Below are positions 2,387 through 47,516 of a DNA stretch of 64,000 bases, one piece after another (positions within the stretch are counted from its first letter, which is position 1; each line of letters begins with the position of its first letter). Position numbers and translations under genes: made by a program. The notes under the pieces are model-generated. The model searched no databases and was not told where the DNA came from. It saw nothing but the letters and a program-made list of their open reading frames with translations. The DNA lies in the NCBI GenBank assembly GCA_965178125.1, contig OZ237753.1:806001-870000 (forward strand), read 5' to 3'. This DNA is from Bilabrum cf. latius. Taxonomy: Eukaryota.

Positions 2387-5300
2387 ATGGACCCAAGGCT
2401 TCGCTCCATGCGGTCGGAGAGCAGCGGTCAAGACTCGGCCTTGGACTATTCTGACTATGCGAGTAAAAGAAATAGTCTGGACAGATCGTTTTCGTCCCGA
2501 TCTGACTACCGAGATGGCGGGGTAGGCCTCGGATCGATGGCCCCTCGCTCGCAAGGTGGTCTCGTAACTGTAGCAGAGGCCAAGACTGCTGGCGATGGTA
2601 CAAGCAACCCCGCCGGTACGAGAAGCGAGCCATTTTCATTTGAAGGCGAGCAGAAAACAGGTTCATCTGCTGCGGGTGTGGCCCCAAGGCTGCAAGGCAG
2701 TCACCACGGTTCTGGCGGTGCCGGTTCTTTCTCTACAGATGAGCTTATCAACATCGCAGAGACGCTTAGGTACAAGATCGATATTAAAGATAGGTAAGAT
2801 TCCTTGAATCGGAGCTTACGAAGCTGTTCGTCTCGATCGCCGTAGACTTGAGGCAATCGGCTCATTGTGTGACGCCCTATGTATGCTCACCGTTTGCTTG
2901 TGTCGATCGACGCGCTTGATCCTTCCGGGTAGCTGCCCTTCAATTACAACTATCTGATGTTGCCTTGACATCACGGGGCACGCTGTAGCCGAATCTGTGT
3001 TGAGGGGAAACGAGCATGGTGGTGCGGGGTTGCCATAGCTGGCAGCAACCGGTGTCCTCCGTGTTCAATTTATTGTGTTTTGAGAGTTCATTGAATGCGT
3101 TGTTGTCTTTACTTGCCAGCGGGGCCTGCTGCTTCACGAATTCGGTGCTGTTCTAGTAGTTCCACTTTGACTTGATCCCGCAGGACATACCGGTTCTAGA
3201 CGTATCGAAGCTGCTTTGTGGGAAGCGAAGCAGTCGATTTCTTTGTGCAATAGAGGATTGCGGACAGCCGCAAAGAAGGCGAGGAGTTGGGCCAGGCGAT
3301 GGTCGACGCCGGGCTGTTCCACCACGTCGTGGACGAGCACAAGTTCGAGGATAAATACCTCTTCTTCCGATTTTACGTCGACGAAACGGTTAAGGAGAAA
3401 CATACACAGTTCGAGAGAAGGCGCCAGCGAGACGGTCTTGGCGTTGCCAAGGTAGCCGCGCTCGCTCGCCCCGCCGGTGCAGTCACCATGCCCGACGGCC
3501 GCCCCATGCCGCATGGGGCCAAGCACAACGAGTGCCTCGTCAAGCAGCTGTAGGGGGCCTGCCAGGGCACCGGGCACAAATCCATGGCCGCAAAGGCTGG
3601 GGCCGGGAGCAGCTACGGCGGCAGTATCGCCTCCGGCTCCGCTGGGGGCTCCTCCGCCTCTGGCGTGGGCAGCGGCGCGACCGGCTCGGACGAGTCGGAT
3701 TTCGCCGCTGCTGAGAGCGGGCTGCGGGCGGTCACCCTTCAGGCCATCGAGGACGAGGACGACGAGGAGGCGCTGGGGGCCACGGCGGTGGCGGCGGCCG
3801 AGGCGGCCGGCCGCGTCGACGCGAGGCACCACTCGTCACACTCCTCGTCGTCCGGGGTGAAGAAGAAATGTTCCGGCGGGGCCCCCGGTGGCCTGTCGGC
3901 GTGCCCTCACGCGGCCGCCCGCGCCCTTGCCGGAACTCAGGGCGTCCCGGGGCAGGAGGGCGTCCTTCAGGCTGCTGCCCCGGGTGCCGTGCGAAGGGGG
4001 CTAACCGACGGCTCCACGCACACGCACTCGCACTCGTCACGCTCCAACACCAGCGGCTCGGAGCCCGCGCACCGCGACACCCCGGCGGCGGGATCTGGAT
4101 CTGGCGGGGCGGGTAGGACGGTGACGGGAGGCAGCATCGAATCAGTGCTGCCCTCCCCCCACGGGCAGTCGCTAGCGAGCGGGGCTGCGCCGGGGGTCCG
4201 AAGCGGGATGGGCTCTTCGGGCCGCGCTGGGATGCTAGCCGCGGGCAGCAGCGATGCTTCGTTCGCCGGGGCACAGGCGGGTCCCGCGGGCACCCCCGCG
4301 GCCCCGTCCACTTTGCGAATGTCCATGCTGGGAGTTGACAAGGAGAGCGCGGTGCTGCTTGCGCTGGCCCGGAGACTCAGGGCCTGCGTGGACGTGAGAG
4401 ATCGGCAGTACCGGTTCCGTGAGTACGACAGCGTGTTTGTGGGCAGCACCGCGGTGGACTGGATGGTCCGCTCGGGGCTGGCCCGCTCTCGGCTGGACGC
4501 GGTTGCCCTGGGCCGTCGCCTGCTCGAGTCTGGGTACTTCCATCACGTGGTGGACGGCCACGACTTTGAGGACAAGCCCCTGTTCTACCGCTTCTACGTG
4601 GACGAGGACAAGGACGCGGAGTGGTTCTGGAAGAAGCACGGGGAGCTCGGTGTGGACGACGACGTCGGCAGGGGGAGGCACGGGACCCTGTCGGGTACAA
4701 CGGGTGACCCCAGTCAGCCGAGGGCATCGACTACCTCGGGCTCTGGCTCGGGTCCTATCATCAAGTCCAGGAGGCAGCAGCTTGGCGGCTCTGCCTGGAG
4801 CGAGCGCTCGAAGCACGAGGGCCAAGGGGGCGGCGGAGACGGGGGTCGTCTGGCATCGGTGGACCTGAGGCACTCGTCCAGGGCCAGCGAAGGGGGCGTC
4901 TCGCCAGGACACCTGGCGGGTAGCGAGGGGGGCAGCAGCCGCGTTCTAGCGCAGGGCAGTAGGCACCGATAGGCAATGACGAAGGGGTCCGCCACGAGCT
5001 GGCGCAGTTCCTGGCGCCTCCGGCCGCACACCACCTGCAACTCTCTCTTGCTTGGTCCCGCCCTATCCGATGCGATCCACGTTGCAGCCAACACTGTGCC
5101 CGTGGGGACAGCGAGGGTGGGGGGCACGGCGGTGGGTGACCCGCAGCAGCTGGGACGGTGGCTCGCGGTCCTCCGCAGACGTGCGTGGGATGCTGCGCTC
5201 TCAGTGCGACCCAACAAGGCCGCGGCCGTGCGTTGGCAGAGGCGCAAGCCCGTGGCCCCGCCTGCGGGTAGCCCAGGCGCAGGCGGCGACGCTACGACGG

Positions 5301-8300
5301 CTCCAGCCCTCTTTACCTGGATGGTGTCCTCCTCTCGATCATCGGCGTCGCAGGGGATCCGGGTGTGGCGGCTGGACGGGCCTGACATGCAGAACAACGT
5401 GGTGTGGAAGACGGAGGCCACGGTCGACGCCCCCCTGCACACGGTGGTCAAGCTGCTCTCCGACACTGGCCTGAGGCGGGAGTGGGACAAGGACTGGCAG
5501 CGGGCGGTGCTGGTCCAGAGCATTCAGGCAGAGGTGCCCAAGCTGGAGAAGGCAGCTGCAAACAACAGCGGCAGCGGCAGCGGCAGACACGGGGACGGGG
5601 ATGGCCGGCTGGCACCCGCCCGCGGCCCGCTCACGTCCATGGACAGCATCCCTTCGACCGCAAACGACGCTGACGAGTCGTTGTCCGATACCTCTGTGAG
5701 TGACAGGCGCAGGGGCCGGCGGGAGCCCTCGTCTGCCAGCGCGGGCCGCCGAGCCGCTGGCGATCGGCACAGCTAGCAGCAGCCCCCGCAGCAGCCGGAT
5801 GAGCCTCTCATCCACGAGACCTTCGGGCGGTTCCTGGGGAGGACCTCCGCCTCTGCCTCCGCTTCCGGGTCCGCGTCCAGCTCGCCCGCCCGCACGCCAG
5901 CCGGCCTCCGCTAGCCCGTTGAGCCCCGGGGGCTGACGGACGCGCTCGACCTCAGCTCCGGCTCCAAGACGTCCTCCACGGACACGCCCTCCGTGCTGTC
6001 CTACCCCAGCGCAGACATGGCCACCGGCGGAGCCCCCCGCCCGCAGGACCTCTGGCTCCGGCTGGCGCGCAGCGATCGCACCACCCTCCGCGAGGCAGCC
6101 GAGGCGGCCCTCCCCGCGGGTACAGACGGTTTGCCGCGGGCCGTGTACAGGCAGATGCAGGCCGTGAGCGTGCTCGCTTCTCCCAGAGATTTCGTGACTC
6201 TGCAGGATGGCGCCACCGTCAGGTTCCGCAGGCCTCGCGCGCTGGGAACGGACCGTGGGAGCTCCCGGCCCAGGGCACAGCGGGCCGCGGTGCTGTACGA
6301 AGTGTCGGTGCAGCACAGGTCCGTGCCCCCAAGGGACGGCAGCACCCGCGGTGAGGTCCTTGCGAACGTGTGGGCGGTCGTGCCCACCGAAGGGGCCCGC
6401 CGCCCGGACAGGCCGGCCATGCTCCGGTCGGAGCTGGAGGCGGCTCGGTACGGTCTGCAGATGGTGAGCACGCAGCGCTGCAGGGTGGTGCTCGTGTCGC
6501 AGATGAGGCTAGAGGGAAACCTGCCCCCGTGGCTCAACGGCACGGTGGCAGACGCGCAGACCCTGGATCCCATCAAGCGGCTGCGAGCTGCCGTGGCCAA
6601 GGAGGGCCTGAGGGCCAGAGCCAACGAGGAGGTGGCCGCGGGGATGGCGCAGCAGCTGAGGCAGCAGGCCGCAGAGCAGGCCCGCAGGCACCAGGCCGAG
6701 CAGGAAAGCAGGCTAAGCGCCATACGGGCCGCGGAAGAGCGGTCGGTGGGGTCTGCAACTGGCGCCCCGGATGTGGCAGGGCGGGACGTGCCGGCGACTC
6801 CCGCAGAGGTAGCGGACATCAGGCGGAGCAGCCCTCCCGGGCGAGGCGCGGGAGTGGTTGGTGCAGTGGGACGAGCTGCCTCTACGGCCGGGCCCACCTC
6901 TCACTCGTCACACGGCGCGTCCGCGCTGCAGCCCCAGCAGCACGCGGCCATCCGCGCGACCTCTGCCTCCCCGCACGGCTCCATGACCCCGCCCGGGACG
7001 GGGGCTAGCATCCTGGCCCCCGGCCAGGTGGGGTCACCCACTGGGCGTGCCGGCTCGGGGCTGAGTGGCGATGGGGCCGCTGGCGGAGACTCGCTGGAGG
7101 GCGCCTCAAGGAGGGGCTCCACCCGGCTGATCAGCTCGGATGGCGCGGATCGGGCTGTTCGGGGAACACGGCGGGTCACCACGCTGAGCGAGATATCAGG
7201 GGACGGGTCCAGCGGCAGCCAGGAGGGCGGCTCGCAGGGCAGCCCCGTGCCCAGAGACCTCACGGCGGAGGGAGAGGCCGCGGAGGCTGCCGCCCTCCAG
7301 TCCCAGGACAGCGGGTCCGTGGGTCAGCGGCAGGACAGCATCATGGTGGCCGGCATCGCGGTCGTGGGCCAGGATGGGAAGGAAGGGGGGCCGGTGGACC
7401 CCGATGCGGGGGGCGAGGAGGCGCCCGAGCCCGCTGCGGTTGCGGGGCGGGTGAGCTCCGGCGGTGGCGGCACCGGCGTGTCACTGAAGGACTTTGACGT
7501 GCTGGCGGTGCTGGGCAGGGGGGGCTACGGGAAGGTGCTGCAGGTGCGGCACCGCAAGCGCGGGGGCGTGTACGCCATGAAGGTGCTGCGCAAGAGCGAG
7601 CTGGTCAAGCGCAAGCAGGTGAGACGGACCCTGACCGAGCGGGACATTCTGTCCAAGGTCAGGCACCCCTTCATCGTCAAGCTCGAGTTCGCCTTCTAGA
7701 CGGACAAGAAGCTGTACATGGGCCTGGAGTTCGTGTCGGGGGGCGACCTCTTCACGGTGCTGTCGAGGGACGGGCTCGTGGACGAGACGAGGGCGCGGCT
7801 GTACATCGCCGAGATCGCGCTGGCGCTTTAGTACCTGCACGAGCACAGCATCGTGTACAGGGACCTCAAGCCGGAGAACGTGCTGGTGGACGCCCAGGGG
7901 CACATCAAGCTCACGGACTTCGGGCTGTCGAGGGCCGCTAGGGTGCAGAGGAGGCCCATGAGGATGCTTCCGCTGGGCGCGCGGGCCGTGGTGGAGTCGA
8001 GCGTGCCTCCAGGGGCGCCTGACGCTGCCCGTGAGGCGGTGCGTGCCGCGGATGAGGCCGAGGACGGTGTGGCGGGCAGCGTGGAGCTTGGGGAGGGCGG
8101 TGCCGACGGTGCGCAGGAGATCTCGTACTCGTGGGCAGGCACGGAGCTGTACATGGCCCCGTCCATCCTGCTGTGCAGGGGCCATGACGAGCGGGTGGAC
8201 TGGTGGTCCCTGGGCGTCCTCATGTCGGAGATGATTACGGGCAGACACCCCTTCAAGGGTCCCAACCACTACGGGACGCTCAAGAACATCGTGCACCCCA

Positions 8301-9157
8301 AGGCGCCCATCCAGACCCTCCGCTGGCTGAGCCCCGCGGCCGCAGACCTCATGTCTGGCTTCCTGAGGAAGGACCCGGAGAAGAGGCTTGGGTCAAGGAC
8401 GGCGGGCGGCTTCGAGAGCATCAAGAACCACCCGTGGTTCGCGGGCCTGGACTGGCAGGCTGTCTACGACAGGAGGTATGCCTCGCCCTACGTGCCCCGC
8501 ATGCGCACCGCCGAGGACACGACCAATTTCGACGAGGTGTTCCTCAGGGAGGCCCCCGTCGACTCGGTGGCTTCCTCCGTGGGCGGGCTGGAGCTGCTGC
8601 AGCCGGGCAGGCACAAGGACGGCAGCGAGGCCAAGCCGCTGCCCATCCGGTCCGAAGAGGCCGTGCAGCAGGTGTGGTCGGAGGCGAGGCAGCAGGCGAA
8701 GCAGCAGGTGCGCGCGGAGAGGGCGGCAAAAAAGGCCAAGCAGCAGGGGGGAGCAGGGATGGCGCTACCGCCCGCTGCCAGTGGCGGGACCAGGGGTCAG
8801 GGGTCAATTGCGGGTGCGGGTGCGGGAGCAGATGCGGGGGCGGGTGGCTCGGGTGCTCCATCCGGTGCTCCATCCGGTGCGGGGGGTGCGCCGGCGCAGG
8901 ATTTCTTCGGCTTGTTCCGGCCTGCGGATGGAGCAGCAGCTGCATCAGCCGGTGGTGGCGGCGCAGGGGCAGGCCCGGGTGCTCCCGGAGTGGACGCGGA
9001 GATGGGCCTGGAGCGGGGGGGGAGCGGCGGACGGATCACGAGCGCCATGTCAACCGCCTCTGCTACTGAGGCCACGGAGGAGCTCGCCAAGAAGCTGCTG
9101 TGGGATTTCCCAGCCTTCGATTTTGTAGCCGCAGAAGTAGATGCGAGCCTGGAGTGA
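2387..9157 (+). CDS. Multidomain AGC-family Ser/Thr kinase: DEP-DEP-START-kinase-AGC C-tail (~2126 aa; exons 2387-2793, 3184-9157; 8 in-frame TAG)
   Basis: GT-AG intron 2794-3183 restores DEP1 (IKDRTYRF[Q][15 protein letters not shown]...[20 protein letters not shown]). DEP2 ~4375-4605 ([23 protein letters not shown]...[10 protein letters not shown]). START motifs RREWD, SPRDFV, GNLPPW. Kinase [38 protein letters not shown]; tail NFDEVF and FPAFDF. TAG at 3197, 3251, 3551, 4970, 5774, 5912, 7697, 7829; TGA 9155-57. Confidence 0.9.
2794..3183 (+). other. Spliceosomal intron (390 nt, GT-AG)
   Basis: Donor AG|GTAAGA, acceptor CCCGCAG|G; removal restores the DEP motif KDRTYRF in frame. Confidence 0.85.
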
Positions 9158-9601
9158 TTGGTGCTTTCGGCACCGAAAATGCCTCAAAAAACGGCTACTA
9201 GGTAGCCCGTTGGTTGAGATTAGTCGACGCTTGTGGTGCTGCCGGTGTTCCTGCGCGAGCGGAGAGGCCAGAATTACCATGCTCGCGTCAATTTTGGCAT
9301 GCTGGCAACTTGATCGTGTATTTCTGCGCACAAGTAGTTTAGCTTTCATGTTGAGACATCCAGAATGTCCCTGTTGTCCTGCTCCCATTTCCTTCCCCAT
9401 TTGGTTGGAAGGGGGGGCAAAAGCCACTTGCAACCCCCGCCGACGGGGGCACTCACCAGTCTACCCCTCTGGCAGTTGGGGTCACAACGCGGTTTGCGTC
9501 AAGACCGGGAGACAAACTGCATCGGTACACGAAAGTCCCGAGCCTATCCGTGCCTATACTGGCACTCAAACTATTAAGAAGGTCTGAATTTTCCAAGTAG
9601 T

Positions 9602-12600
9602 ATGCTTGGACGACTGTCGCGTCCCTCGAGCATCCAGTGCTGTTGCATGCTTGCAGGGGTCGTGATATTAAGCACCGAATCGGCCAGGGCTGCGCTACAA
9701 GCAGGAGAAGGATCCATGCCGATGCGTATTGAGCTTGGACTTTAGCGAAACTCCAAACGATTGAGATCAGCGTCTGCTGGAATGCCCGTTCTCGACGAGG
9801 ATGGCGAGTTTGGTTCAGCATTGTGCGAACTGGGTGCGTCTCCCTACGGTGACGCTGATTTGATCGCCGCGGCTTCTAGTGAAGAGGGCGAAGTCCATTT
9901 CCTGCATGTGTCTGCCAATGCAGACGCGGTGATTCTCGGTAGAAACGTCTTTGTGGCAGGTACATCCAGCTTTAACCTGCGCGACACAAACTCATTCGGC
10001 ACCAGCCTTGCCGGGTTGCCAGACTTGGATGCGAACGGCTGCCGTGACATGATCACAGGTATGCCAACAGGAAATGGGACCGTCGGTACGGCCGCAGTGC
10101 TGCGGCTAGGAGGGCCATACTGCGACGAGGTTCTAAACGCTACACTTCTTGTTGCTGGCGAGAGCGAGCTAGTGGGCATTACGTAGCACAAGGAATTCGG
10201 CATATCTGTGGCAAGTCTACTTACTGCGCCATTTTATATCGATGGTGTCGCCCGGGTGGCCGTAAGCACAGTCAGCGGAGGAGGCGACACCGGCCGCGGA
10301 GGAATTCACATCCTCGAGCTCGCCAGCAACGGCTCTGTCGTGGGCACCCCCACCCTGCTGGCGAACGGGACGACCAAGATCGGCGCCGGGGCGGGTGGAT
10401 CAGGCGTGAAGCTCGACTTGGAGGAGGAAGACCTTACCAGAGTGGGCACCGCCCTCGCCGTGCTCCCATACGAAGGTCCAGCAGGGCCGGGCACCAGCCA
10501 GCGGGAGAGGCTGGTGGCGCAGGTATACAACGACGACATTCTAGAGGTGGGCATCGCGATCTTCGATATCGAGCACGTGCGAGGCATCGGGATCGCGCTC
10601 CACGCTTACACGGTAATCAATCCGTACAGCAGCAGCCAGCGACCATTCGGCATGTGGACATACGACATGAGCCTCTTCGGCGACGCCATCGCAGGGGCCG
10701 GAGACGTGGATGGAGACGGTCACTGGGACCTGTTCGTGGGCGTGCCAGCGATCGGGAGCAACGAGGGCGGCGCTGCGGTGATCCGGCTGGACGGCTCAAT
10801 CCATCCTATCGAGGCGCGGGTTCTTTCCGAGAGCTCCGCGGCGGTCTGGAATACCGACTTCGAGATTGACGAATATTTTGGAAGGTCTGCAGCCCTTGTG
10901 AACTCGTCGAGTTTCGGGAGGCGCATCCTGGTGGGCAGCACTGGCTTCGACTCGGACACTGGCGCGCTCCACGTTCTCAACCGCATCGAGAACTCCATGG
11001 TGGGTGGCTACAAGGGTGACGGGTATCTCCTATTGGCGCAGGATACGGAGGATCTGGGTCCGCAGCTGCAAACGATCGGAGTCACGGAGCTGCGGGAGGA
11101 CGGCGAGTTCGGGCTGGCCGTGGCCACGTGCGGGGACTGGGACGGCAACGGGGTAGAGGACTTGTTCGTGGGGCAGCCGGACATCAGCAACGAAGACACT
11201 GGGGCGGTATACGGCCTGTACATGCACCCCAACGGCACGGTCAAGGAGGCGTTTGTTATCCACGGCGAGGACAGCGAGCTGAGCGGGTTCGGGATTGACG
11301 AGGACTCCGAGTTCGGCATCGGCCTGGCCTGCTTCATGGAGCCCGACGTGCCCGAGAACCCATCCCCGTACGCGGGTCTCCTGCGCCTGGCGGTCGGGGC
11401 CACCAAGCACGGGACGGACGGAGTCGTCTTCGAGATGGCGCTGCATCCCTCCAACGGAAGCATCGCCCACGGCATGGTGGCGGTGATCGATACCGCTGAT
11501 CCGGTCGTGAGCGGCGCCTCGGACGACGACGACATGGGCAGCGGCCTGGCATACCTCAGGAACGCGACGATCATTGTCGTGGGCCAGGACGACAGCGAGA
11601 ACGTCTTCATCCTGCGGCGTGCTCGAAATGGGACTCTTGGGCAGGTAGACGAGCTCCATGAGCTGTCCCAATCGTTCGTGGGAGACGACTCCGACGATTA
11701 CTTTGGCAACGGAATCTCAGCTTACAGCGACTGGAACGGCGACGGGCTGGAGGACGTGCTCATCAGTTCGGAGAACGGCCACTCCAGCGAATCGGGGGAG
11801 GTCTTTCTCGTGGCTCTGGATGTCGACGGGGCGCCCATCGCGTACAAGGCCGTGCGCGGGGACAGAGAGGGAAGGGCGCTCGTTGGCGTGACGGACGAGG
11901 GCGATTTCGGGACCAGTGTCGAGCGGGCGGGCGACCTGGACGGAAACGGTGTGGAGGACATAATCGTGGGTGCGGACGACGACCGTGCCCCTGGCGGCAA
12001 CACCGGGAGCATGTATGTTATTTTCATGGGGGAGGGCGGAGAGGCCCTGGACTCTTTCAAGATCTTTGGGGCGAACTTTGGAGGTACTGTGATGGAGCAG
12101 GACGCCATCGGAGACTCAGTGGGAATACTTAGGGGCTGCAAAGTGCCTGTGCAGGACCCCGAGAGGGCAGCACTCGAGTACTGCTTCGTGATCGGAGCGA
12201 GCGACATGCACTCCCCCGACGACGAGTCCGGAGGCGTGTGGCTCGTGGCTCCTTTCGGGTCGCAAGAGATGCGCGTTTCAGTCACTGACGTAGAGAGCGG
12301 GAATCTGACGCTTACGGCTGAGGGTATGAAGCCCAACGTAACCTCACGATTGTATGGCCAGGCACAGGCCAGCTACGTGGGCGACTATGATGGCGACGGG
12401 GAGCAGGAGGCTGCAATGGCCGGCGTTGATGCAGAAGACACGAGCTAGGGCGGCAGCATCCTCCTGCGTCTGTCAAACGGTGCGAGCAGTCCCATCACTG
12501 CCCGTATCGAGGCTCCCGCGGGCCAACCCGCGTCGCTGGCGATGAACTTCTCCGGGGCTGTCTCATCCGCTGGGCTCGTGGACGGAGATGCCGCGGAGGA

Positions 12601-14617
12601 CATCGTGACTGTGACAGTGAACGGCAGCACCTCCGGCACCGAGCCTGCGCTGACAATCGTGCTCATGGCTCCCAATGCGGCGGCGGGGGACCCCGGATCG
12701 CCGGTCCGCGCCAGCGACATCGTGGTGACGCCTTCCATCGTCGCGCGATCCGTGTGTGGCTTGGGTGATGTGGACGGCGACGGGACCCCGGACGTGGCTG
12801 CTGGTGATCCGCTGCATGACGAGCCAGCTGGCGAGGACCGTGGCCTGGTGACCATCGCGTTCTTGCGTGAGAACGGAACCGTCAGGCACTCCGTTGAGCT
12901 GTCTCTGGGCCGCACCCCCGGTCTTGAGGAGTCCTATGCGTACGATGGAGATGCCCTGGGCTTCAGCTTGGCTGGCCTGGGCGACATCAACGGAGATGGT
13001 GTGCCTGACCTCGCTGCCGGGGCTCCACGCGACGGGAGCTCCCACAGCGACGAAGAGCCCGGGATGGTTTGGTTGTTCATGCTGAATGCCGACGGCTCGG
13101 TGCTGCGCGCCCGCAAGATCTCCAAGGTCTTTGACCCCCTCGTGTTCGCGACGGAGAGCGACTCGAGACTCGGCCTCGTGATCGGACGGGCTGGCGATCT
13201 TGACAACGACGGGGTACCAGACATCCTGGTGGGGCCGTTCGAAGAAGACAGCGCGGACGTGCACGGCCTGCTGTTGCGGCGGTCGGGAGACGTCAAGGAG
13301 CAGTTCAAGGTGGTGATCGAGGCCCCGGCTGAGCTAGGGTCGGGCGGTTCGGTGGATCGCGTGCTTTCAGTTGAAGCAGCGAGGGGCGCCCAGCTGCAGG
13401 GCAGGCGGCTCCAGGCCAGCCAGCCCCTCACTAGCACGAGGGTGCTTCGAGGAGGCCCTTCACAGACCTATGGCCGCGAGCTCAGCGCGGAAATGAGCTT
13501 CGGGTCTGGCATTCTGGCTCTGGGCGCGCTCACGGATTCGAACAGTGGCATTCGGCATGGAGCAATGGAGATCTCATTCGTATCGGAGGCTGTCATTCCC
13601 AACCTGCCGTCGTCGTCGCCTACACCCAGTACCAGCCCCAGTACCAGCCCCAGTACCAGCCCCAGTACCAGCCCCAGTACCAGCCCCAGTACTAGTCCCA
13701 GCACCAGCCCCAGTACCAGCCCGAGCACCAGCCCGAGCACCAGCCCGAGCACCAGCCCGAGCACCAGCCCCAGCGTCAGTGCTAGCCCCAGCACCAGCCC
13801 GAGCACCAGCCCCAGTACCAGCCCGAGCACCAGCCCCAGTACCAGCCCAAGCACCAGCCCAAGCACCAGCCCAAGCACCAGCCCCAGCGTCAGTGCTAGC
13901 CCGAGCACCAGCCCGAGCACCAGCCCGAGCACCAGCCCAAGCACCAGCACTGGCTCGACCACGACTCGCCCGCAAGGCAGGGAACTACCAGACAGCGACA
14001 GCGCCTCGGACGGGACCGAGACCTGCACGGACCAGCTACCAGGGGGTGCCGCCAGCTCCGCTGTGCTTGTGGAGACCTCCGTGAGCGTCGGCTCTGCTCT
14101 CCCCTCGGACATCGGATGTGCCACCGCGGAGGCATTCGTGGCCCAAGTCATGGCAGCAGCAGGTCTCGAGCCGGGTGACGCCGTGTTCTGGGTCGAGACG
14201 TCGCTGGACGGGCAGGGGTCCGTGCTGGTGCTGCAGGTACCCGCAGAATCGCCCCAACGCGCTGAGGAGCTGATCGCCCTGATCGAGCCCCAGCTGTCCA
14301 ACTCTACCATCCTGGATGACCTCGTGGCGGGAGCCGGGAGCGGGGCTTCGGCCAGCTACAACAACGACTCGGCGGTGGTGGACTCGCCCTACCTGGACAC
14401 GAGCGGGGAGGATGATGACCCTCCTATCTGGCTGTGGGTGGTGATCGCCGCGGGTGCCGTGCTTGTGTGTGGTGGGTGCATCACGTGGTTCGCGTGCGGG
14501 GCATGCTGCAAGAGAGAGGATGATGAAGAAGAAGACGAGAACGCCAAGGCCAGAGAGAGGAATGGTGAGGGCAAGCGCACCGACCCCAAAGTTGTGCCCT
14601 AGGCCGCAGAGGTGTGA
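9602..14617 (+). CDS. Integrin-alpha-like FG-GAP repeat type I membrane protein with a Ser/Thr/Pro stalk (~1671 aa; 4 in-frame TAG)
   Basis: ATG 9602 gives a signal-peptide-like start ([30 protein letters not shown]). Many FG...GDxDGDGxxDxxVGAP repeats (e.g. [32 protein letters not shown]), then (STSP)n and a TM helix [25 protein letters not shown] 9743, 10184, 12446, 14600; TGA 14615-17. Confidence 0.88.
13628..13947 (+). repeat. 12-bp coding tandem repeat AG(T/C)ACCAGCCC(C/G/A), ~26 units, encoding (STSP)n
   Basis: Directly visible; two variant SVSASP units; mucin-like stalk of the FG-GAP protein. Confidence 0.95.
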
Positions 14618-14785
14618 CGCGTGAGCTGCCCCGAGATTACGGTGGGTATACGAGAGCGGAAGCTTGGTCCACGACCTTCGGGAACAATCCTAGGCAAGCT
14701 GGTGGTGCAACGTGAATCAGCTCCGAGTTCATTCATGTTGTCGATCGGCGAAATGGTTTGCATGTTCGAGTGAAGTACACTATGG

Positions 14786-15879
14786 TCAGCCAATTCCACC
14801 CCCGGCGGCAATCCCAAGCTCTGGATCCACCCCACCGTCCCCTCCAAACGCAGCCGCCCCTCCGGCCATGCCCCCCAAGCTCGCGCTAGGCCCCATGCTC
14901 TCCATGGCCCCATCCACCCTGTCCATGTGCCTGGGCTCCATGTCCTCGCCGTACTGAAGCAGCCGGTCCGCAGAGCCCAGCACCAGCTCCAATGAATCCT
15001 CGTCCGTGGGGTCCAGCGGTAGGAACTGCACCATGCTGAAGTCATCGAGGAGCTTTGCCATGGCCCCGTTGAGGCTCTTGAACCTGGAGGGGGTGCTGGC
15101 AGAGAGCTCCTCCAGCAGGTCCACCCCCGATGGGCTCAGGAACCGGCCCCAGACGTCCTTTTTCACGATGTCGCACTTTGTGAGCACGTTCAAGTGCGGT
15201 AGCTCTAGATGCATCATGGCGGCCAGTGCTGCCAAGTTGCCGCTGAGCAGCTTGGCGGCATCCGAGGCGAACGTCGCGTCGATCAGGTACACCCCAACTG
15301 CGTTCCAGCCGTCCGACTGCAGCAGCCTGGCAACCGACCGCATAATTGGAACGTGGGAGTACAACTCAATCTATCCAGGGCAATCAAATAATACGTAATC
15401 CTCATCTCCGAAGCCCCCCAGGATGTCATCCAGCCAATCGGCCCTGCATTCCAACATGTAGTCCATGCAATACATAAGGCCCCCGTTCGGGCCCAAATCT
15501 AATTCCTCCATAACATCTTCAACGCTGATGAGGTCCCTTATATCTGCGAATCCATGGACCGTGTGGGAAACACCTTGCTGCACAGTAAACACCATTGCGT
15601 TCCAGGTCTGGGCACTATGGCACTGATGTCTCACCTGCAGCTAAGCTGTAGCCAAAATGATCTGCAGCTGGGTCTAAATTAATTACATGTACCTTTCTAC
15701 GCAGCGTTTTACAATGCTCTTGGATATTCTTGCAGTATGTGCTCTGCGAACGAAAGCTAAACGCAGAACGAATCCAGTATAGTGCGAGCTGCAAGCTGCC
15801 AAAGGCAGGCACATTACGTGAAAATATACCCCACTTTACCCGTGCCAGCTGGTCCCATCACGATTTGGGCGAACTTCAT
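14786..15879 (-). CDS. GPN3: GPN-loop GTPase 3 (exons 15879-15835, 15743-15635, 15543-14786; 1 in-frame TAG)
   Basis: [19 protein letters not shown]...[36 protein letters not shown][TAG 15371-73][24 protein letters not shown]. Two 91-nt GT-AG introns (15744-15834, 15544-15634); TGA 14786-88. Confidence 0.95.
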
Positions 15880-16148
15880 CGCAGCAAGTTGTGCATACAC
15901 GCCCGCAGCAAACAGCAACTGCGCTGCCAATGCTGATGTGACCAGTGTCAGCACCAGGATCGGATTGGGAGATGTCTTTCACGGGCAGCGGGGGAGGATT
16001 TGTAGGTATGTGTGGAGGCGGGGGCTGCACCCGCACGGGATTCAAGGAATTGTGCGAAGAAAGGTATCCAAGACTGCCAGATACTTCAAATACCCTTGGT
16101 CTGTTGCCCCAGAAGGCGGTACGCTCCGTTGCGGAAATGCGCGGAAAA

Positions 16149-20948: not shown

Positions 20949-23231
20949 TTAATGAATTTCGGCTTGCTATCGCTCAAGACTGCCATTCTCCTATCTACTG
21001 TAGCCCCCCTGAGGCTCCACGCACTCTGCAGCGGCCTCACAGCACGCAGCCAGTCCCAGGAAGAGCCCCCGCGCCCAGCCATCGCCGTTCCCCATCCCAC
21101 CGCCCGAATCCCCCGATGCCCCGCCCCCGCGCCTGGACCCCGCACCGCCTAGGGTTTCATAACCAGCACCCGCCCTACCCCTCCCGCCCTGTTGTTCCCT
21201 GGCAAGCTCCGCCTCGCGCGCCCTCCGCGCCCTCGGAGCCAGCCGCGGCGACACCATCATCCTCCGCAGCTCCCCCCGCCCGACCCCTGCCTCTGCGACG
21301 GACAGAGAGCTCCGCGCCCTCTCCAGCAGCTCCAGCACGTCAGCGAGCAGGGCGGGGCCCAGGATGTGCGGGGGCACCAGTCCCCTCGAGAGCGGGCCCA
21401 CACCGGGCCGCCCGCCCACTTTGCCGCTGCCGCCAGCAGCAGCACTGCCCTTCCCCCCCCCGTCCCCTTCCCCTTCCCCATCGCTCCCGGTCGAGTCGCC
21501 GCTTCCATCCCTGCGACTGTGCCCCGCCCTGCCCCCCGCAGCACCTCCCACGCCTCCTGCCTGCCCCACGGCCTGCCGCTCCAGCACGCCCTCCGCCAGT
21601 GCCGCGGTCATCTGCGCGATGGGCTCGTCGGGCCCGTCCACCCCGCACGCGTAGTCGATCGTGTCCACGAACTCCTTCATGCGAGGCAGCACGGCAGTCT
21701 CGAGCGACTCCAGGATATGCGCGTTCGCGTCCCGGCTGCGATCCAGCTGGCCCGCAAGCCCCATGGCCTCCTGCCGAGCTGCCATGCGCTTCCTCTCGTG
21801 AGACCCGGCCTGCCGACGCACCTCCTCCCGCTCGCGCGCCAGGCTCGCCCTCTCCTCCTTCACCTTCCTCTCCGCCGCCAGCAGTTGTTCCCTGGCCCCA
21901 CGAGCCCTGGACTCGGCCCCAGCCAGCCGGCCCCGCGCCGACTCGCCCTCGGCCCGCGCAGCCACTAGCTCCCCCTCCAGCCGGCCCACCCGCACCCGCA
22001 GCTCTTCCAGTTGTTCCCTGGCCTCTCGTTCCCCTGCCTCCGCCCTGCTCGCCCTGCCCTCCGCCGCAGCCGCCCGGGAGTCCGCCTGCGCCGCCGCATC
22101 CCTGGCCTCCCCCAACTCGGCCCTGAGCCGGCCCTCGGCTTGTTCCCTGGCCGCGGCCCCCGCCCCTTTCGCCTCTTTTCTCGCATCTTGCGCCTCTCGT
22201 TCCGCCTCCTGCATCCTGACCCGCATGGAATCCCGCTGCCTGGAAGCCTCCAGGAGCTGCTTGGCCATCGCGTCTGCCTCGGCCTGCTTGGACCTGAGGG
22301 CCAGCTGGGCCTCCCTGCCCCTGTCCGCCCGCTCGCGGAGGGAGGACGCCTCTGCCGTGGCCGCCGCCAGCTTGCCCCTGGCCTCTGCCGCCTCCTGCTC
22401 CGCCGCTTGTGCCCTCGCATTCGCCTCCTCTGCCCGAGCCTCGGCAGCGTCTGCTCTCTGCGTCGCCTCTCGCCTCGCTCGGTTGGCCTCTGCAAGCACG
22501 CCCGCCGTGTCTTCTGCCCTGCCCGCCTCCCGCTTGGCCTCTGCCTCTGCCATGAGCACCCGGCGCTCCAGCGACGAGAACTGCTCCGATCGATCCCGGG
22601 CACGTGCCTCAGCCTCGTCGGCGCGCTGGGACTCCGACGCCTGGCGCTGGCGGGCCGATTTGAGCTGTGCCCTGAGGGCCTCCATCTGCCCCGCCCCGGA
22701 CCTGCTGCTGGTGATCGACTCCTCGATCTGCGCCTTGAGCGCGTCCACCTGGGACTGGAGGGCCTCGCACTGGGAGCGCAACTGCAGCACCTGCTCGTCC
22801 GCCCTAGATCGAGCTGCTCGCTCCTCCTCGGCACGAACCTCCGCGCGGGACAAGGCTTCCTTCACGGCCGCCTCTGAGCTTTGGAGCCGCGCAATGGCGT
22901 CTGCGCTCGCGGCCGCCTCCTTGGATTCGCCGGATGCGCCTCCCTTTGCGGCTCCTTCCTTGTCGGCAGCCTGGGCCCGAAGCGCAGCCACTTCGTCCTG
23001 CAGCGACTTCTGCTGAGTTGTAAACTTAGAAATCTGCTCTGCCATGTACTTTCGAGCTTGCTCGCGCACCTGCTTGAGCTTGCTATCCTTCTTCAACAGA
23101 GACGCGCGCAGCGTTGCGAGCTCTGCATCCCGTCGCCTGTTCTCTTGAGCTTCCTCGCGGAGTGCATTCAAGAGCCCCGGCCTGTCCAAGTCATTCCACT
23201 TCCGTTCCCTTGCTTCATCCAGGGTAGACAT
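20949..23231 (-). CDS. Long coiled-coil protein (~760 aa)
   Basis: ATG 23231, heptad-like A/E/R/Q-rich sequence. After ...GGYSR come TAG 20991-93 and TAG 20967-69, then TAA 20949-51 (ENGSLER[Q]QAEIH*). Confidence 0.75.
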
Positions 23232-30948: not shown

Positions 30949-31001
<53 letters not shown>

Positions 31002-33169
31002 AGGCCGGCGGAGGGCTGGTTCGATTCTAGATCTGCGCTCCCGCCATTGGACTCGAGACCGGGCCACCTGCGCTATTTCCGGGGCTGGAGCGCAAGCCCT
31101 CGATCCTCCTGGCCGCTCTCTGGGCGCTGTCCGCGGCTCGGTTCACGCGGCGGATGGCAGCAGACCGCGAGAGCAGGCTCCTGTCATGCTGCTGCTGCTG
31201 CTGCTGCTGCTCGCCTGGTGGTGAGTCCTCGTCGGGCCCGTTGTTCTCCCACCCAGAGAGCAGATCGCCGTCGCCCGGCTCCGTCCTGTAACCCCCCTCT
31301 GCCCCGGCACCGCCATCGACCTCCGCGTCGAGTTCGTCCTCGTCGTCCCTGTCGTAGCCCGGCTCCAGCCGGCCGGCATTCCCAAGTCCAGGCCCCCTGG
31401 GGTTCTCCGCGAATGGATCCTCCGGCACGCTCCTCCCACCTGCCCGCTGCACCTCCCGCACGGCCTGGGCAAGCGATTTGTGACCGCTGTGCTCCTCCTC
31501 CTCGTCGGCCTCCCACGGCGTGGGCGTCTCGCCGCCCCGCCAGCCAGCGCCCCCCGAGGAGGACCCGCTCCCGCGGGACCCCGCCCCCGCCCTCAGGCGC
31601 ATGCCCCTGGCTGCATCCTCGCTGTACCCGTGCACCCGCTCCGCCGCTGCCTCTGCCCTAAGCGCCAGGTCGTCCAGCACCTGGCTCCGGGGCGGCCGCC
31701 TCTCCCTCGAGCCGGAGTGGAACGCCACCTCGTCCCCATCCCTGCCTTCGCCCGTCGCTGCGCTCGCATCATCCTCCTCATCCTGTCCGCCATCGTAGTC
31801 CTCCCCCTCCTCGTCCTCAATCTCCTCCGCGGAGTCCTCCTCGCCCGTATTCCCCGCCGCAGCCATGGCCCTGTCGAACGCCTCCCGCGCCTCCACCAGC
31901 GGCCTGCCCTCCCCCTGCTCCGCCTGCTCTTCCTCGTCCGCCCTCTCCAGCTCCATGAGCGCCTGTTCCTCCGTGGCTGCTCGCAGCGCATCTCGCTTGG
32001 AGGCCCCCCGTGAGTCGCCCCGAGTCCCGCCCTCCTCTACGGCTGCTGCTCCAGACTGCTCCTCGAGCGCGCTCGCGTTGATGCCCCGCAGTCCTGCCTC
32101 CGCTTCGGCCCGCCGACTGGCCTCTCGGCCCGCCCACCGCAGTCCCAGGCCCACCAGCCGAGGGAGATCTCCGCTCGCAAGCACAGATTCCGGTAGCCTG
32201 GACAAGGCGTGCAGTGCCGCGACAGCCGCCCGAGCGGCACCGGGCGACCTAGCCAGCAGTCGGCGCAGTGTGCCAACTGCGGGTCCGTCTGCCCCACCGC
32301 TCCCTGGTCGCTGCCCAACCTCGCCGCTACCTTTTCCTTGGTTTGCCTTGGTCTCCCCCGCCTCGCTGCCTCTCGAAGCGTGGAACTGCACCACGCCCAC
32401 ATCCTCGTGCGGCCGCCACCGGAAGCTGCTCCTGTCGTGCTCCCCACTTTCACCATTTTCCACACCGCCAACGCCACCGCCCTGGGGTGCGCTTCTACCC
32501 TCCGGACCACCGCTCCTCGCCCCCGACGCTTGCTCCCTCTCTTGTTCCCCAGGCTCGTCCCTGACGAACGAGTCGCCCTCCTGTCTGCCCCCGAGCACGT
32601 TTACCCCTTGCAGGCCGTTGGCGCGTACTGGCGACACACCTCTCGAGGGACCCACGTTCGCACTGCCGTCCATCATCATGCTAGAGTCCTGCACGAACCC
32701 AGAGGGGCTCGCTGGCAGCAGCGGGACAGCGCCCGCCCCGCTCTCGTCTGGTGTCCGGTCCGCCGAATCGCCCCCACCGCCGTTCGTCTATTGCTGCTGC
32801 TACTCCTGCGGCTGCTACTGACCATCGATTGCGCTCGCATCGGCCGAGTGCACGTAGTCTGCGAACGTGTCGGGGTCGGGGCGCGGCACCCGCCTGCTGG
32901 TTTTGGGCCGCTCCAGGCGCACCGAGCTGGGCGAGGACGACTCTGGAGAGCCGGTGCTGGGCAGCGGGCGTGTTTCCGGATTTCTTGAACTGGCACTTCG
33001 CTGCTGCTGCTGTTGCCTCTGCCGGGTCATGGACTGCTTCTGAGGCGACACGCGGGCCAGCGGGGTGGCAGCACCGTTTGCGCCCAGGGCGGCATCATCC
33101 GAGAGAGGCTGCAGCTCAGGCCGAGCCGTCCCTCTGACAGCACCACCGGCAGTGGGCACAGCCCTCGAG

Positions 33170-43395: not shown

Positions 43396-46300
43396 TTACG
43401 ACCTGTCCATCCTCGGCTGCCGGGGCGAGAACTCGCTCACTCCGGACACCCCGCTAAAGCTCATGTCGCCGCTGCTGTCCTGCTGCTCACCCGCAGCATC
43501 CCCTCGCCCAATGCCGGGAATGCCTTCTTCGTCCAGATCTCCAACCGCCAAGCGCGGTGTCTGCGCGACGGGCTGTGCACGAGCATGCGAACGATGGCCT
43601 GCAGCAGCGATACCCCCGCCCGACAGCCGGCGAGCCTCCCCACCCGCCGCAGCACCGCCACTCATCTCCATCGCATCGTCCTCGTTCTCATCCTCAGGGT
43701 CATCGTCCTCATCTTCGTCCTCTGACATGTCCATGGACTCATAGTCGTCCTCATCCTCACCCTCCTCTACCTAATGGCCCATCTCGACCCCCCACCCAGC
43801 GCCTCCTAGCGACTCCTCCAGCCCAGAGGCCGCCCCTTGCAGCGCAGACAGGCCAAGCCCAAGGCTGCTCCTGCCCCTTCCGCCTCGCCTGCCCGATCCA
43901 GGGCCAGGTGTCCCAAGTGCCAGGGCTCGAGAGCTTCTGAGCCCCTCCAGAAACGCAGCCTCCTCCTCCTCCTCCTCCTGCCCGCCAGGATTCACACTCT
44001 CGACCTATTTGCTCTCCGAGGCGGACGCGCCCCAAGGACCCGACCGCCGACCACGCACCCCAGGTGTCCGAGCAGGTTCCCCCTGTGCCGCTCCGCCGCC
44101 ACTGATGCTGCCTCCCATGCCGCGGCCCGCAGATTGGTGCGTCCCACTTGCCGCATCACCCACTCTGCTGCTGTCGGCGCTGTCTCCAAACCCAGGAGGC
44201 AGCGGGATGCCACCCCTGCCAGCCCCTGGCCCTGCCCTGCCAGCCCCCGAGGGGGAGGCGTCCCCCATCGACGTCTCGATCTCATCCAGCAGCCTGTGCA
44301 TCCCTGCGGGCGTGTGTGCGTGCGCCCCTCTCGCAACGGACCCTGCTGTTGCTGATGCACCTGCCTCCGTGTTTCTGTCACGGTAAGGCGTGTCTGCTGG
44401 CTGCTTCGCTCGCCCTCGCCCTCGCCCTTCAGGCATCGCGCCAGAACTCCTACCCTGAGCTGTGCCTCTCTTGTCCTCGTGTGCCTGGATCTCCTGCGAT
44501 GCTATCTTGTATAGCACCTCGTCAGTGATGCGCTCTGTGTACGACTCGCCGCTGCCTGCCCCACTGGCCGCCTGCCCGTCCTCCCTGTTGCCGCCCAGTG
44601 ATTCTCGCGCCAAGCTGCTCATGGCCGAGGCCGCTGCTCCACCTCGCCCCCTCCTCGCACCTCCCATCATGCCGGTGCTCCCCAAGAGCGCGCCATCCTC
44701 GCCGAGTGCGAGGGCCGCATCAGCCGCGCTAGCACCCAGCGCCTGCTCCGCCGACCGCAGCGCGCCATCAGCTCCACCTGGCACGGCCACATCGTCGCTA
44801 TCTCCCCCCGCCTCGGCGCTAGGCCCACCTGCACCGCCGCTTGCAAATTCTCCTTCTTCCTTCCCGTCCCCGCCGTGCAGCCGCTGCATTGCACGGTGGA
44901 GCAGCACCCTGGCGAGAGAGCTCGCGGGCGCCAGGGCCACAGCGCCGTGCAGCACCGCAGCCGCGTCCCGTGCCCGTGCCAGCAGCAGCAGCACCAGCCC
45001 AATGGAGCACATGATGCTGGCCCGCTGCTCCGCCTCTCCCTGTCCCGCAGTCGCCCGTCCTCCCCCCTCCCCAGTTCCGGTGGGCGCCCCACGCATGACC
45101 AGAGAGGACGCGGCTCTTCGAGCGGCGAGTGCATCCCCCGCCACCACCATCTCGTCCACAAGCCCGCTGCCCTCCGGCCCGTACCCCAGCTGCATGAGAC
45201 CCGCCGCACCCTCTGACCACGCTCCGTGCCTCTTGACCAGCCCGAGAGCGTGCTGTAACACGATCAGAGAGGCATGCAGCCGACCCGTGCTCCGGAGACA
45301 GTGGCCCGCCAGCACGTAGGTGGGCACCCAAGCAGACCGCAACCTGGGAGACAGGGGGTCGATGAGCCCTAGCGCGACCCGTGCGTGCGCAAGGGCCTGC
45401 CTCGGCCTCCCGTGCCTGTATGCCAGCGCGGCAGACTCGTGGTGGCAGGCGGGATCCATGGGGCCCATGCGGCGCGCTCGCTGCAGCAGCAGTGCGGCCA
45501 GCCCGTCGGACCTCACGGCCGAGGCCTCCTTGGCCAGCGCAAGCAGGGGCACGTGCCACTGGGGCGCCAGTCGGCTGGCTGCCCTGTACGATGCCTGCGC
45601 CTGCTCTGACTCGCCCCCCACACTGAGCGCATGCCCCAGCAAGACCCACGCCCGCGCCCTCGACCCGTCCTCCCTGAGACTGTCCCGCAGGCTACAGGCT
45701 GCCAGCGAGGACTCCCCCGAGACCAGGTAGTACAGCCCGATGGTCTCGTGAGTCAGAGGGTCCGATGGGGTCATCCGGCCCTTGAGCACCGCAAGGCCGT
45801 GCAGCTGGTCTGTCCTGGCCCCCGCCGCCAGCGCCTCTGCGTAGACCTGCGTCCCTTCCCTGTGCAGGGGGTCCTCACGCAGAGCAGCCTCCGCATGCTG
45901 TGCCGCCCTCCCTGCGTCCATCACCTCCAGGGCGTACTGTGCCAGGAGGGCCCGCACGGGGGGACAGGCCCGCAGCATACCGCCCTCGATCTCAGACAGG
46001 GCCTCGACAGCCTCGATCCCGTGGCCTGTGGCCCGGCCCGCGTGCAGCACCGCCTCCGTGTAGTGGGCCATGGGCCTCGGGATGGCTGGAAATGGCCCCC
46101 GATGCGCTGCACCTGTGCCTCCTACGAGAGGCGGGGACGCCAACGACCCCGCTGGGTCCGCTGCCCTGGCTGCAGATGCAGGCGTGCGATCCATCATTCC
46201 TCCCGCCGCCGCAGAGCGAGGGGCGGGCGATTGCCACGACGAAGCAGCCTCGCCGTGCTGCTCGCCGCCAGCGTGCCCTGCCTGTCTCTACCCCTCCAGC

Positions 46301-47301
46301 GCACCCTGGCCCTCCTGGCTAACCTGGCTCTGGTCTTGTTCCCCAAGTACCCCGTGGACCGGAATGCCCGCCGCGATAAAGGCTGCCTTTGCCACCGCGC
46401 TCGCCTCCCCGGGCTCGAGCAGGTGCCCCTGTGCGAGCAGCTGGGCGCTCTCGAGGTGCGATGGATCCACAGCCAGTGCCGCCCTCAGCCACGCAGAGGC
46501 GCCCTCCGAGTCGCCCCTCTTGCCCAGCGCCTGCCCTTGCAAGTGGCACAGGGCGGCGACGTTCGAGCGGGGCGTTCCTCTCGTCTGCGCGTGTTGGGCG
46601 TCTCGAGCAAGTGCTTCGAGCGCCCAGGCGAGCACCAATGCGCTCGCGCACGCCGCCCTGCATATCTCCAGCTTCTCGTCCTCGTCGTCATTCTGGGATT
46701 CGTTAGCGCCTATCTTATTGACTGTATTTTTGCTACCGCTGTCAGATGACTGCATGGCCTCTTGCTCGGCATCCCCAGCCTTCTGCGGCGCTGCCACGCT
46801 TCCGCTGGATGCAAGAACACTGCTCGAGGAGCAAATCGCCCTCGCGCTTGGCGTCGATTTACCGAGTACTTGGCCTGGAGTCAGTGCTTCAATGCCGTGA
46901 AAGCCGGCCAGACGGCGCAACTCCACCGCAGCATCATCTTGAGAGTACAGCAGCTCACCCTCGTCACGGCCGCCGACCTGCAACACCGATTGGCTTGCCT
47001 CTAGCAACTCCCCCCAGCGTCCTTGGCGCTCCATACATCTGCACAGTAGCACGCGGGCCTCGATTCCGACCGGTGTCGTCTCTGTTAAGCCGGCCTCTTC
47101 CGGTGCGTTCTCAAGCCGGTGCACTGCTCTGGCGTATTCACCCCGCGCTCGCAGCGCTCGGGCCAATACCATCACATCACACGCATTCTAGCCAGACAAT
47201 GAACATGCAAACTCGGCGTAAGACACAGCGGCATCATCACGCCCGCACTGCGCACACTCCGCTGCTAGCCTCCGAAACTGCACCAAAGAGGCAGAATCCA
47301 T
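43396..47301 (-). CDS. CDC16: Anaphase-promoting complex subunit 6 (CDC16/Cut9)-like TPR protein with long insertions (~1301 aa; 4 in-frame TAG)
   Basis: N-terminus ...DVMVLARALRARGEYARAVHRL; IGLYYL; AWVLLGHALSVGGESEQAQASYRAASRLAPQWHVPLLAL; DPACHHE; LAGHCLR all follow the CDC16 TPR pattern. TAG 47188, 46288, 44005, 43771; ends in TAA 43396-98. Confidence 0.8.
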
Positions 47302-47516
47302 TCGCTTCTTTAATCTATCAGGGTGGATATCGACTATTTACTTGCGATTATATGACAAAATAATGAACTAAAGCGGAAAATATTGCGGTAGGCACCCTTT
47401 TGTTGCAATCTGAGCAACGGCATGGAATACTCGTCACACTCAAACCAAAAGCATTGCATGGTAATGCAGTTCGCAAGATCCAACCCGCTGCTTCATTCTC
47501 ACAGAACCTGCTGGCA

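Follow-up and report, generated by a model that had tools for sequence, protein, structure and literature searches.

The nuclear genetic code seldom changes, and the question raised by the locus described here is whether a stop codon has been captured for an amino acid in the genome that carries it. The locus lies in a stretch of 64,000 nucleotides (nt) of contig OZ237753.1, filed under Bilabrum cf. latius (assembly GCA_965178125.1, positions 806,001 to 870,000), the whole of which is referred to below as the window, and it consists of a gene for a GPN-loop GTPase on the minus strand in which an in-frame TAG (15371 to 15373, residue 109 of the spliced coding sequence) follows the residues DCPG. 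A preliminary description of the stretch had read the minus strand there as TTT GAT TGC CCT GGA TAG ATT GAG TTG TAC, and this reading proved exact, with the TAG at 15373..15371 and a TAT codon preceding the TTT. It is concluded that this TAG is very probably a sense codon for glutamine in an expressed and spliced GPN3 gene, read by a nuclear code of the type of NCBI table 15 in which UAG encodes glutamine, UGA is the usual stop and UAA has probably kept its role as one.

The first line of evidence is the column in which the TAG falls. The reading frame is open and homologous on either side of it, and when the site was masked as X glutamine was found in the column in all 120 of the homologues listed, as would be expected from the earlier claim that the glutamine after DxPG is essentially invariant; the column is likewise glutamine in 14 of 14 homologues of a separate alignment (A1). 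Glutamine also occupies it in the solved GPN3 (9t5j_C, DCPGQIELY), with which the protein described here agrees at every letter of this motif except the masked one, and in a GPN GTPase from an archaeon (7zhf_A, DTPGQIELF). Unlike the GPN3 of 9t5j_C, the gene in the window has UAG as its glutamine codon. The preliminary assignment to glutamine, made on the basis of the invariant column, therefore holds, and its description of the site as diagnostic seems fair because, among the alignable sites tested, only this TAG and one other, at 7697 in a kinase gene, fall in conserved columns. On its own, however, the site cannot tell reassignment from a nonsense mutation, because a premature TAG arises most often from CAG, and it is the evidence from across the window that makes the distinction.

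The identity of the gene was established from its motifs and its relatives. The motifs of the family, which we take to be G1 (GxxxxGK[ST]), the Gly-Pro-Asn loop, G3 (DxxG and then glutamine, DxPG presumably being the G3 of P-loop GTPases) and G4 ([NT]KxD), are all present in the spliced coding sequence, with GPAGTGKS at residue 9, GPN at 69, DCPG at 105, the TAG at 109 and TKCD at 173, and the same four are present in 9t5j_C. The profile PF03029 matches residues 2-200 of the 254-residue reading of exon 3 (expectation value (E) 5.3e-49, 167.6 bits, cut-off 27), and the best solved relative is chain C of 9t5j, GPN3 (E 3e-55, residues 1-206 of the same reading); matches to GPN1 in the PDB are far weaker (1e-9 and 9e-6), so that by scores and hit names the protein is nearer to GPN3. 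The nearest named relatives in the protein library carry the name GPN-loop GTPase 3, the top match having 66% identity and the top named match, from Cafeteria roenbergensis, 60%. The gene is thus a GPN-loop GTPase, as had been proposed, and as judged from its sequence it is the GPN3 orthologue; its C-terminal tail is rich in Gly and Ala and falls outside the alignment with the homologues.

Expression of the gene was examined by comparing the window with sequencing runs in the form of Logan contigs, those of runs X1, X6 and X8 coming from three studies. No CAG was seen at the GPN3 site; TAG is present in X1 (record 8), X6 (record 23) and X8 (record 30), with 0 differences over 14875-15543. The X1 contig, which is DNA, matches 13909-16000 with 0 differences and covers intron 2 with no splice joint. 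The X6 and X8 contigs cover 14875-15543 and then skip exactly 15544-15634, and X8 additionally skips 15744-15834; the ends of the skipped segments are CT..AC on the plus strand, which is GT..AG on the strand of GPN3. The gene is therefore transcribed and spliced rather than being an untranscribed copy, and since the spliced contigs carry the TAG unchanged, UAG is present in the mature mRNA and is neither edited nor intronic. A further run, X5, has a depth of 0.2 to 0.34 over GPN3, which is too thin to be informative there.

These joints give a coding sequence of 912 nt in three exons on the minus strand, with one TAG, at residue 109, and a TGA at its end. Exon 1 (15835 to 15879) begins with the ATG at 15879 and is defined by the X8 joint 15743>15835 and by the closure of the coding sequence in frame at 912 nt. 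It is followed by intron 1 (15744 to 15834, 91 nt, GT..AG, with ends GTGGGGTA..GTTCGCAG), which is skipped in X8 record 30, by exon 2 (15635 to 15743), which is covered by X6 record 23 and X8 record 30, and by intron 2 (15544 to 15634, 91 nt, GT..AG, with ends GTGAGACA..ATTCGCAG), which is skipped in the X6 and X8 contigs (side 109) and not in X1. Exon 3 (14786 to 15543) encodes the GPN loop, G3 with its TAG and the TKCD of G4, and closes with the TGA terminator at 14786-14788. Both introns are exactly 91 nt long and have the common ends GTG...TTCGCAG; that they are copies of one element was considered and rejected, their likeness being confined to the ends.

The GPN3 TAG is one of many in the window, which has a G+C content of ~63%. 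Across 12 open reading frame (ORF) segments, comprising 11,782 codons, there are 42 TAGs in frame, 0 TAAs and 0 TGAs, alongside 434 CAG and 68 CAA codons. When stops are restricted to TGA, or to TGA and TAA, ORFs of 2506, 1993, 1683, 1679 and 1313 codons are obtained and most of the long ORFs in which TAG is sense lie in frames with high third-position G+C, whereas in a control in which TGA is made sense and TAA and TAG are stops the longest ORF is of 869 codons. In almost the same segments, the remaining two frames contain 136 and 160 TGAs and 46 and 60 TAGs, and it is therefore TGA, absent in frame and abundant off frame, that is excluded from the reading frame, and not TAG. The ORFs in question are real genes. 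They include a kinase gene and a gene for an FG-GAP repeat protein, both described below, as well as ORFs for an LMBR1 membrane protein, a TALE homeobox protein, a RuvX-domain protein, an orthologue of Cdc16/APC6, a beta-lactamase-family hydrolase and a nitroreductase, and in the latter two the family domain spans two TAGs in each case.

The GPN3 TAG might instead be an isolated nonsense mutation in a pseudogene, result from an error of assembly or sequencing, or be edited back to CAG in the RNA. A single site could not dispel this suggestion, given how readily CAG becomes TAG, but it is now scarcely credible. X1, X6 and X8, each from a different study, all have the same TAG without any difference in their contigs, those of X6 and X8 being spliced, the frame stays intact for 195 codons past the TAG before reaching its TGA, and there are 41 more in-frame TAGs in 11 other ORF segments. 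It is because of these 42 in-frame TAGs, together with the unchanged TAG in spliced transcripts, that the GPN3 codon must be regarded as more than a lone nonsense mutation.

If UAG is sense, the amino acid that it encodes can be read from the sites that fall in conserved columns, of which there are two, and in both the residue is glutamine. The second is at 7697 to 7699 on the plus strand, in the F-x-F-Q-T motif of an AGC kinase, where EFAF[TAG]TDKKLY aligns to the glutamine of YAFQT in S6K1; among the best 150 library representatives the column is Q in 143. Another TAG of the same kinase domain (7829 to 7831, ALAL[TAG]YLH) is in a variable column, with E in 64, G in 25 and Q in 24 of the best 150 representatives, and the close relative P0264, a library fragment that is 93% identical, has Q at that position. 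P0264 is a kinase fragment of 156 residues that starts at the first methionine after the site corresponding to 7697, a start that would fit a standard-code gene caller having met a stop there; its own DNA was not found in the metagenome collection, where the best locus among the matches listed is 61% identical, and the loci listed there were left out of account.

Repeats and codon neighbours point the same way. On the minus strand one TAG falls in register within an Ala-Gln repeat of the form (GCA CAG)n (31000 to 31002, GCC TAG GCA CAG GCA CAG ...), and three TAGs lie in a run of polyglutamine (32788 to 32817, CAG TAG CAG CCG CAG GAG TAG CAG CAG CAA TAG). A glutamine codon adjoins 9 of the 42 TAGs, compared with 7.6% of non-glutamine codons (P 0.004) and 16.7% of glutamine codons, the rate being 10% for glutamate codons, 8.4% for leucine and 4.5% for tyrosine. 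It could still be argued that UAG is sense for some other residue (Glu, Leu, Tyr, Ser or Lys, for instance), as 7 alignable TAG sites sit in columns that vary or align weakly and in which A, S, E, G or R is commonest, and UAG is recorded as Leu, Glu or Ser in other lineages (PMC11687900). This is, however, very improbable, with glutamine in both conserved columns and in the 93%-identical relative at the third site, with TAG standing for CAG in register in the Ala-Gln and polyglutamine repeats, and with a neighbour profile that fits glutamine and not Glu, Leu or Tyr. A recoding of the pyrrolysine or selenocysteine kind was also considered and was rejected because the conserved columns are glutamine.

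Having accepted UAG as a glutamine codon, it must be asked whether UAA has changed with it. UAA and UAG share one meaning in nearly all known codes, according to PMC5304391, which would favour a code of the type of table 6 in which both are glutamine and in-frame TAA is absent merely through GC-richness; moreover TAA is rare window-wide, the strands having 141 and 153 copies of it and 400 and 429 of TAG. The codon ratios nevertheless argue against it. CAA/CAG is 0.16, GAA/GAG 0.19 and AAA/AAG 0.20, and from the first of these ~5.9 in-frame TAAs would be expected beside the 42 TAGs, yet there are 0 (P 0.003). When ORFs are bounded by TGA alone, TAAs occur exclusively at their extreme ends, and of 15 ORFs examined for their closing codon 13 end in TGA and 2 in TAA. 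UAA as a second glutamine codon is therefore an improbable alternative, and TAA is probably still a stop, since it is absent in frame where about six were expected, closes 2 of the 15 ORFs and sits at ORF ends; the change would then be one of UAG only.

Slightly less improbable, although we still regard it as unlikely, is that UAG has a dual role, being glutamine inside genes and a terminator near the 3' ends of mRNAs, or that the TAGs near ORF ends are former terminators that are now read through. Context-dependent codes have been described in some ciliates. Three TAGs in the window lie within 15 codons of an ORF end, where ~0.64 would be expected from 42 TAGs, 11,782 codons and 12 ORFs: one on the plus strand (14600-14602) precedes the end of the FG-GAP ORF by 5 codons, and two on the minus strand (20991-20993 and 20967-20969) precede that of a coiled-coil ORF by 14 and 6 codons. 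These may indeed be former terminators, or UAG may terminate in some contexts. The counts are small, however, and 39 of the 42 TAGs are far from ORF ends, at up to 2459 codons away, so that UAG as a plain glutamine codon remains the preferred reading.

What the sites show is a sense codon where glutamine is demanded or permitted. The decoding would be by a cognate tRNA-Gln with the anticodon CUA, one base from the normal CUG, which pairs with UAG and not with UAA, together with an eRF1 that would recognise UAG poorly and UGA and UAA as before. Such reasoning, from a cognate tRNA and an altered eRF1, has been set out for UAG-only reassignments in PMC5304391, where a change is reported for Iotanema at the threonine of GTS, one of the N-domain motifs of eRF1 (GTS, NIKS and YxCxxxF).

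A number of points weigh against the reading of UAG as a glutamine codon in a code of this type. There is no tRNA gene within the 64-kb window and eRF1 is not in it either, so that tRNA-Gln(CUA) and the changes in eRF1 are postulated, and glutamine itself is assigned from sequence. Just two of the TAG sites are in conserved columns, the 7 other alignable ones being in variable or weakly aligned columns. Glutamine is the majority residue in 0 of the 5 TAG columns of the beta-lactamase-family and nitroreductase proteins, all of which are variable: Q was counted in 0, 1 and 0 of 27 homologues in the three beta-lactamase-family columns (27 aligned out of 138, chosen among those with the lowest E-values) and in 0 of 9 in both nitroreductase columns, 9 homologues making up that alignment. 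In the Cdc16 protein an N-terminal TAG site aligns to arginine, in an insignificant stretch. These sites of the beta-lactamase-family, nitroreductase and Cdc16 proteins neither support nor contradict glutamine, and for the LMBR1 protein no solved relative was found. The comparison with sequencing runs was made on Logan contigs and not raw reads, in which rare variants would escape; X1 is of doubtful independence, as it may be the source sample of the assembly; and that X6 and X8 are RNA is something we infer from their joints and from contigs bounded by genes, their automatic labels being 'probably DNA' for X6 and 'RNA?' for X8. Lastly, the test on TAA rests on ORF segments that were themselves bounded by TGA and TAA, and the three TAGs close to ORF ends exceed expectation as described above.

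How the proposed code compares with others depends on which codons are considered. Codes in which both UAR codons (UAA and UAG) are glutamine, the table 6 type, are found in many ciliates, hexamitin diplomonads, Ulvophyceae, Streblomastix and Amoeboaphelidium. They share with the window the capture of a stop codon for glutamine and the spread of TAG into glutamine-rich tracts, and they differ from it in that TAA is absent from the frames here, with 0 found and ~6 expected. Closer parallels are those lineages in which UAG alone has become glutamine and UAA is kept as a stop: Iotanema spirale (Fornicata), with UAA as its primary stop (PMC5304391), and the ciliates Protocruzia tuzeti, Hartmannula sinica and Trochilia petrani, the latter two being phyllopharyngeans with UAA as the preferred stop (PMC11687900). 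These four, like NCBI table 15, resemble the window in having UAG and not UAA as glutamine, and the evidence is alike in type, namely UAG at conserved glutamines. In contrast I. spirale, H. sinica and T. petrani favour UAA as a stop, whilst here TGA closes 13 of 15 ORFs and TAA 2 of 15 at ~63% G+C, and the lineage here looks neither ciliate nor metamonad, unlike the known systems with UAG-only glutamine. In a further group UAG has changed its meaning apart from UAA, as here, being leucine in the rhizarian exLh and uncultured phyllopharyngean ciliates, serine in Scotinosphaera and glutamate in an uncultured ciliate (PMC11687900); the present case differs from these in that the two conserved columns and the repeats mark UAG as glutamine.

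The placement of the lineage was sought with GPN3. The tree gave no well-supported position, the best grouping being with Cafeteria roenbergensis and two further sequences (83 by the Shimodaira-Hasegawa-like approximate likelihood ratio test, SH-aLRT), and the sequence was placed away from green algae, oomycetes and fungi; the sources given for the nearest kinase and hydrolase homologues pointed to no lineage. Close homologues among the library proteins, P0004 and P0400, are filed under Symbiodinium sp. KB8, that record containing both a GPN3 homologue (57%) and a kinase homologue in the cluster of a 57%-identical match; in the GPN3 tree the sequences filed under KB8 group with the Cafeteria-like sequences and not with alveolates, and the record may contain sequences of a co-cultured organism. 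No paper on UAG as glutamine in a stramenopile, a bicosoecid or another GC-rich flagellate was found in the open full texts searched, which exclude supplements and subscription journals. It is possible, although we would not quite favour it as yet, that an independent and undescribed origin of a UAG to glutamine nuclear code is present here, in a GC-rich and intron-bearing lineage that is neither ciliate nor metamonad, that has bicosoecid stramenopiles as its nearest named relatives and that uses UGA as its main stop. Were that the case, UAG would have been the more frequent UAR codon when it was captured, contrary to the common view that capture befalls rare codons under AT pressure, and the TAGs found shortly before ORF ends would be fossil remains of terminators.

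The findings thus very probably represent a nuclear code of the table 15 type in a lineage possibly new for that code. Each new lineage with a reassigned codon is a natural experiment on the capture of stop codons, and if this one is new it adds a decoupling of UAG from UAA in a genome rich in G+C whose main stop is UGA, and it tests ideas that tie reassignment to codon rarity and to the specificity of eRF1. There is also a practical consequence: gene callers that apply the standard code break up nearly all long genes of the organism, and the genome therefore needs to be annotated with UAG as glutamine. The GPN3 TAG, with its invariant glutamine in a conserved and presumably single-copy gene, provides a convenient marker.

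The gene for the kinase has an unusual architecture and occupies 3176-9157 on the plus strand (~2000 codons). A single frame from 3176 to 9154 encodes two DEP domains, a START domain and an AGC kinase domain with a C-terminal extension, and crosses 8 TAGs, two of them within the kinase domain; there is a large low-complexity insert in the activation segment. Taken from 3182 to 9157 it is one open frame with no TAA, in-frame TAGs at 3197, 3251, 3551, 4970, 5774, 5912, 7697 and 7829, and a TGA at 9155. It is represented in X6 by a contig spanning 3182-9350 and in X8 by contigs spanning 3182-7470 and 7444-8733. The contigs of these two runs begin at 3182 and reach 9350 or 9348, across all 8 TAGs and with 0 differences. 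The start of the RNA contigs at 3182 implies an upstream exon of the kinase gene, and 9348 to 9350 is likely to be the poly(A) site, ~195 nt past the TGA.

The FG-GAP repeat protein is encoded in an ORF at 9578 to 14617 on the plus strand with in-frame TAGs at 9743, 10184, 12446 and 14600 and a TGA at 14615. Two haplotypes of it, ~5% apart, are found in X1 at about equal depths, and the alternative one is alone in X6, where record 18 has 170 differences over 3459 nt; they extend over 9547-13623 and differ by an indel of 3 nt near 13489-13491. Such variation points to a diploid or a mixed population with a very polymorphic surface protein. Among the 40 haplotype differences listed (169 more exist) 26 are at third codon positions (P 4e-5), and when these same 40 are divided at the TAG at 10184 third positions account for 15 of the 27 that lie upstream of it and for 11 of the 13 that lie downstream; the bias on both sides of the TAG indicates selection in the same frame upstream and downstream of it. 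Contig depth in X1 has two peaks, one in each of these genes, of 693 at 8642-9075 and 397 at 13416-13849, compared with ~30 to 90 in neighbouring bins. Both segments are low-complexity coding sequence, with Gly/Ala-rich and Ser-Pro-Ser-Thr repeats, and the peaks therefore probably sum repeats from elsewhere in the genome.

Further along the window the Cdc16/APC6 protein is encoded at 43399-47337 on the minus strand, in one of the two ORFs closed by TAA; the Pfam match suggests ANAPC3/TPR, the best solved relatives are Cdc16/APC6 (E 3e-16), and the protein has long low-complexity inserts and tails. Beside it two ORFs overlap on opposite strands, at 47367-49160 (plus) and 47703-49115 (minus). 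The former matches the beta-lactamase-family serine hydrolases (E 2.5e-37), and the latter, of 471 codons and without a family match, was rejected as a gene and is regarded as a by-product of the G+C content.

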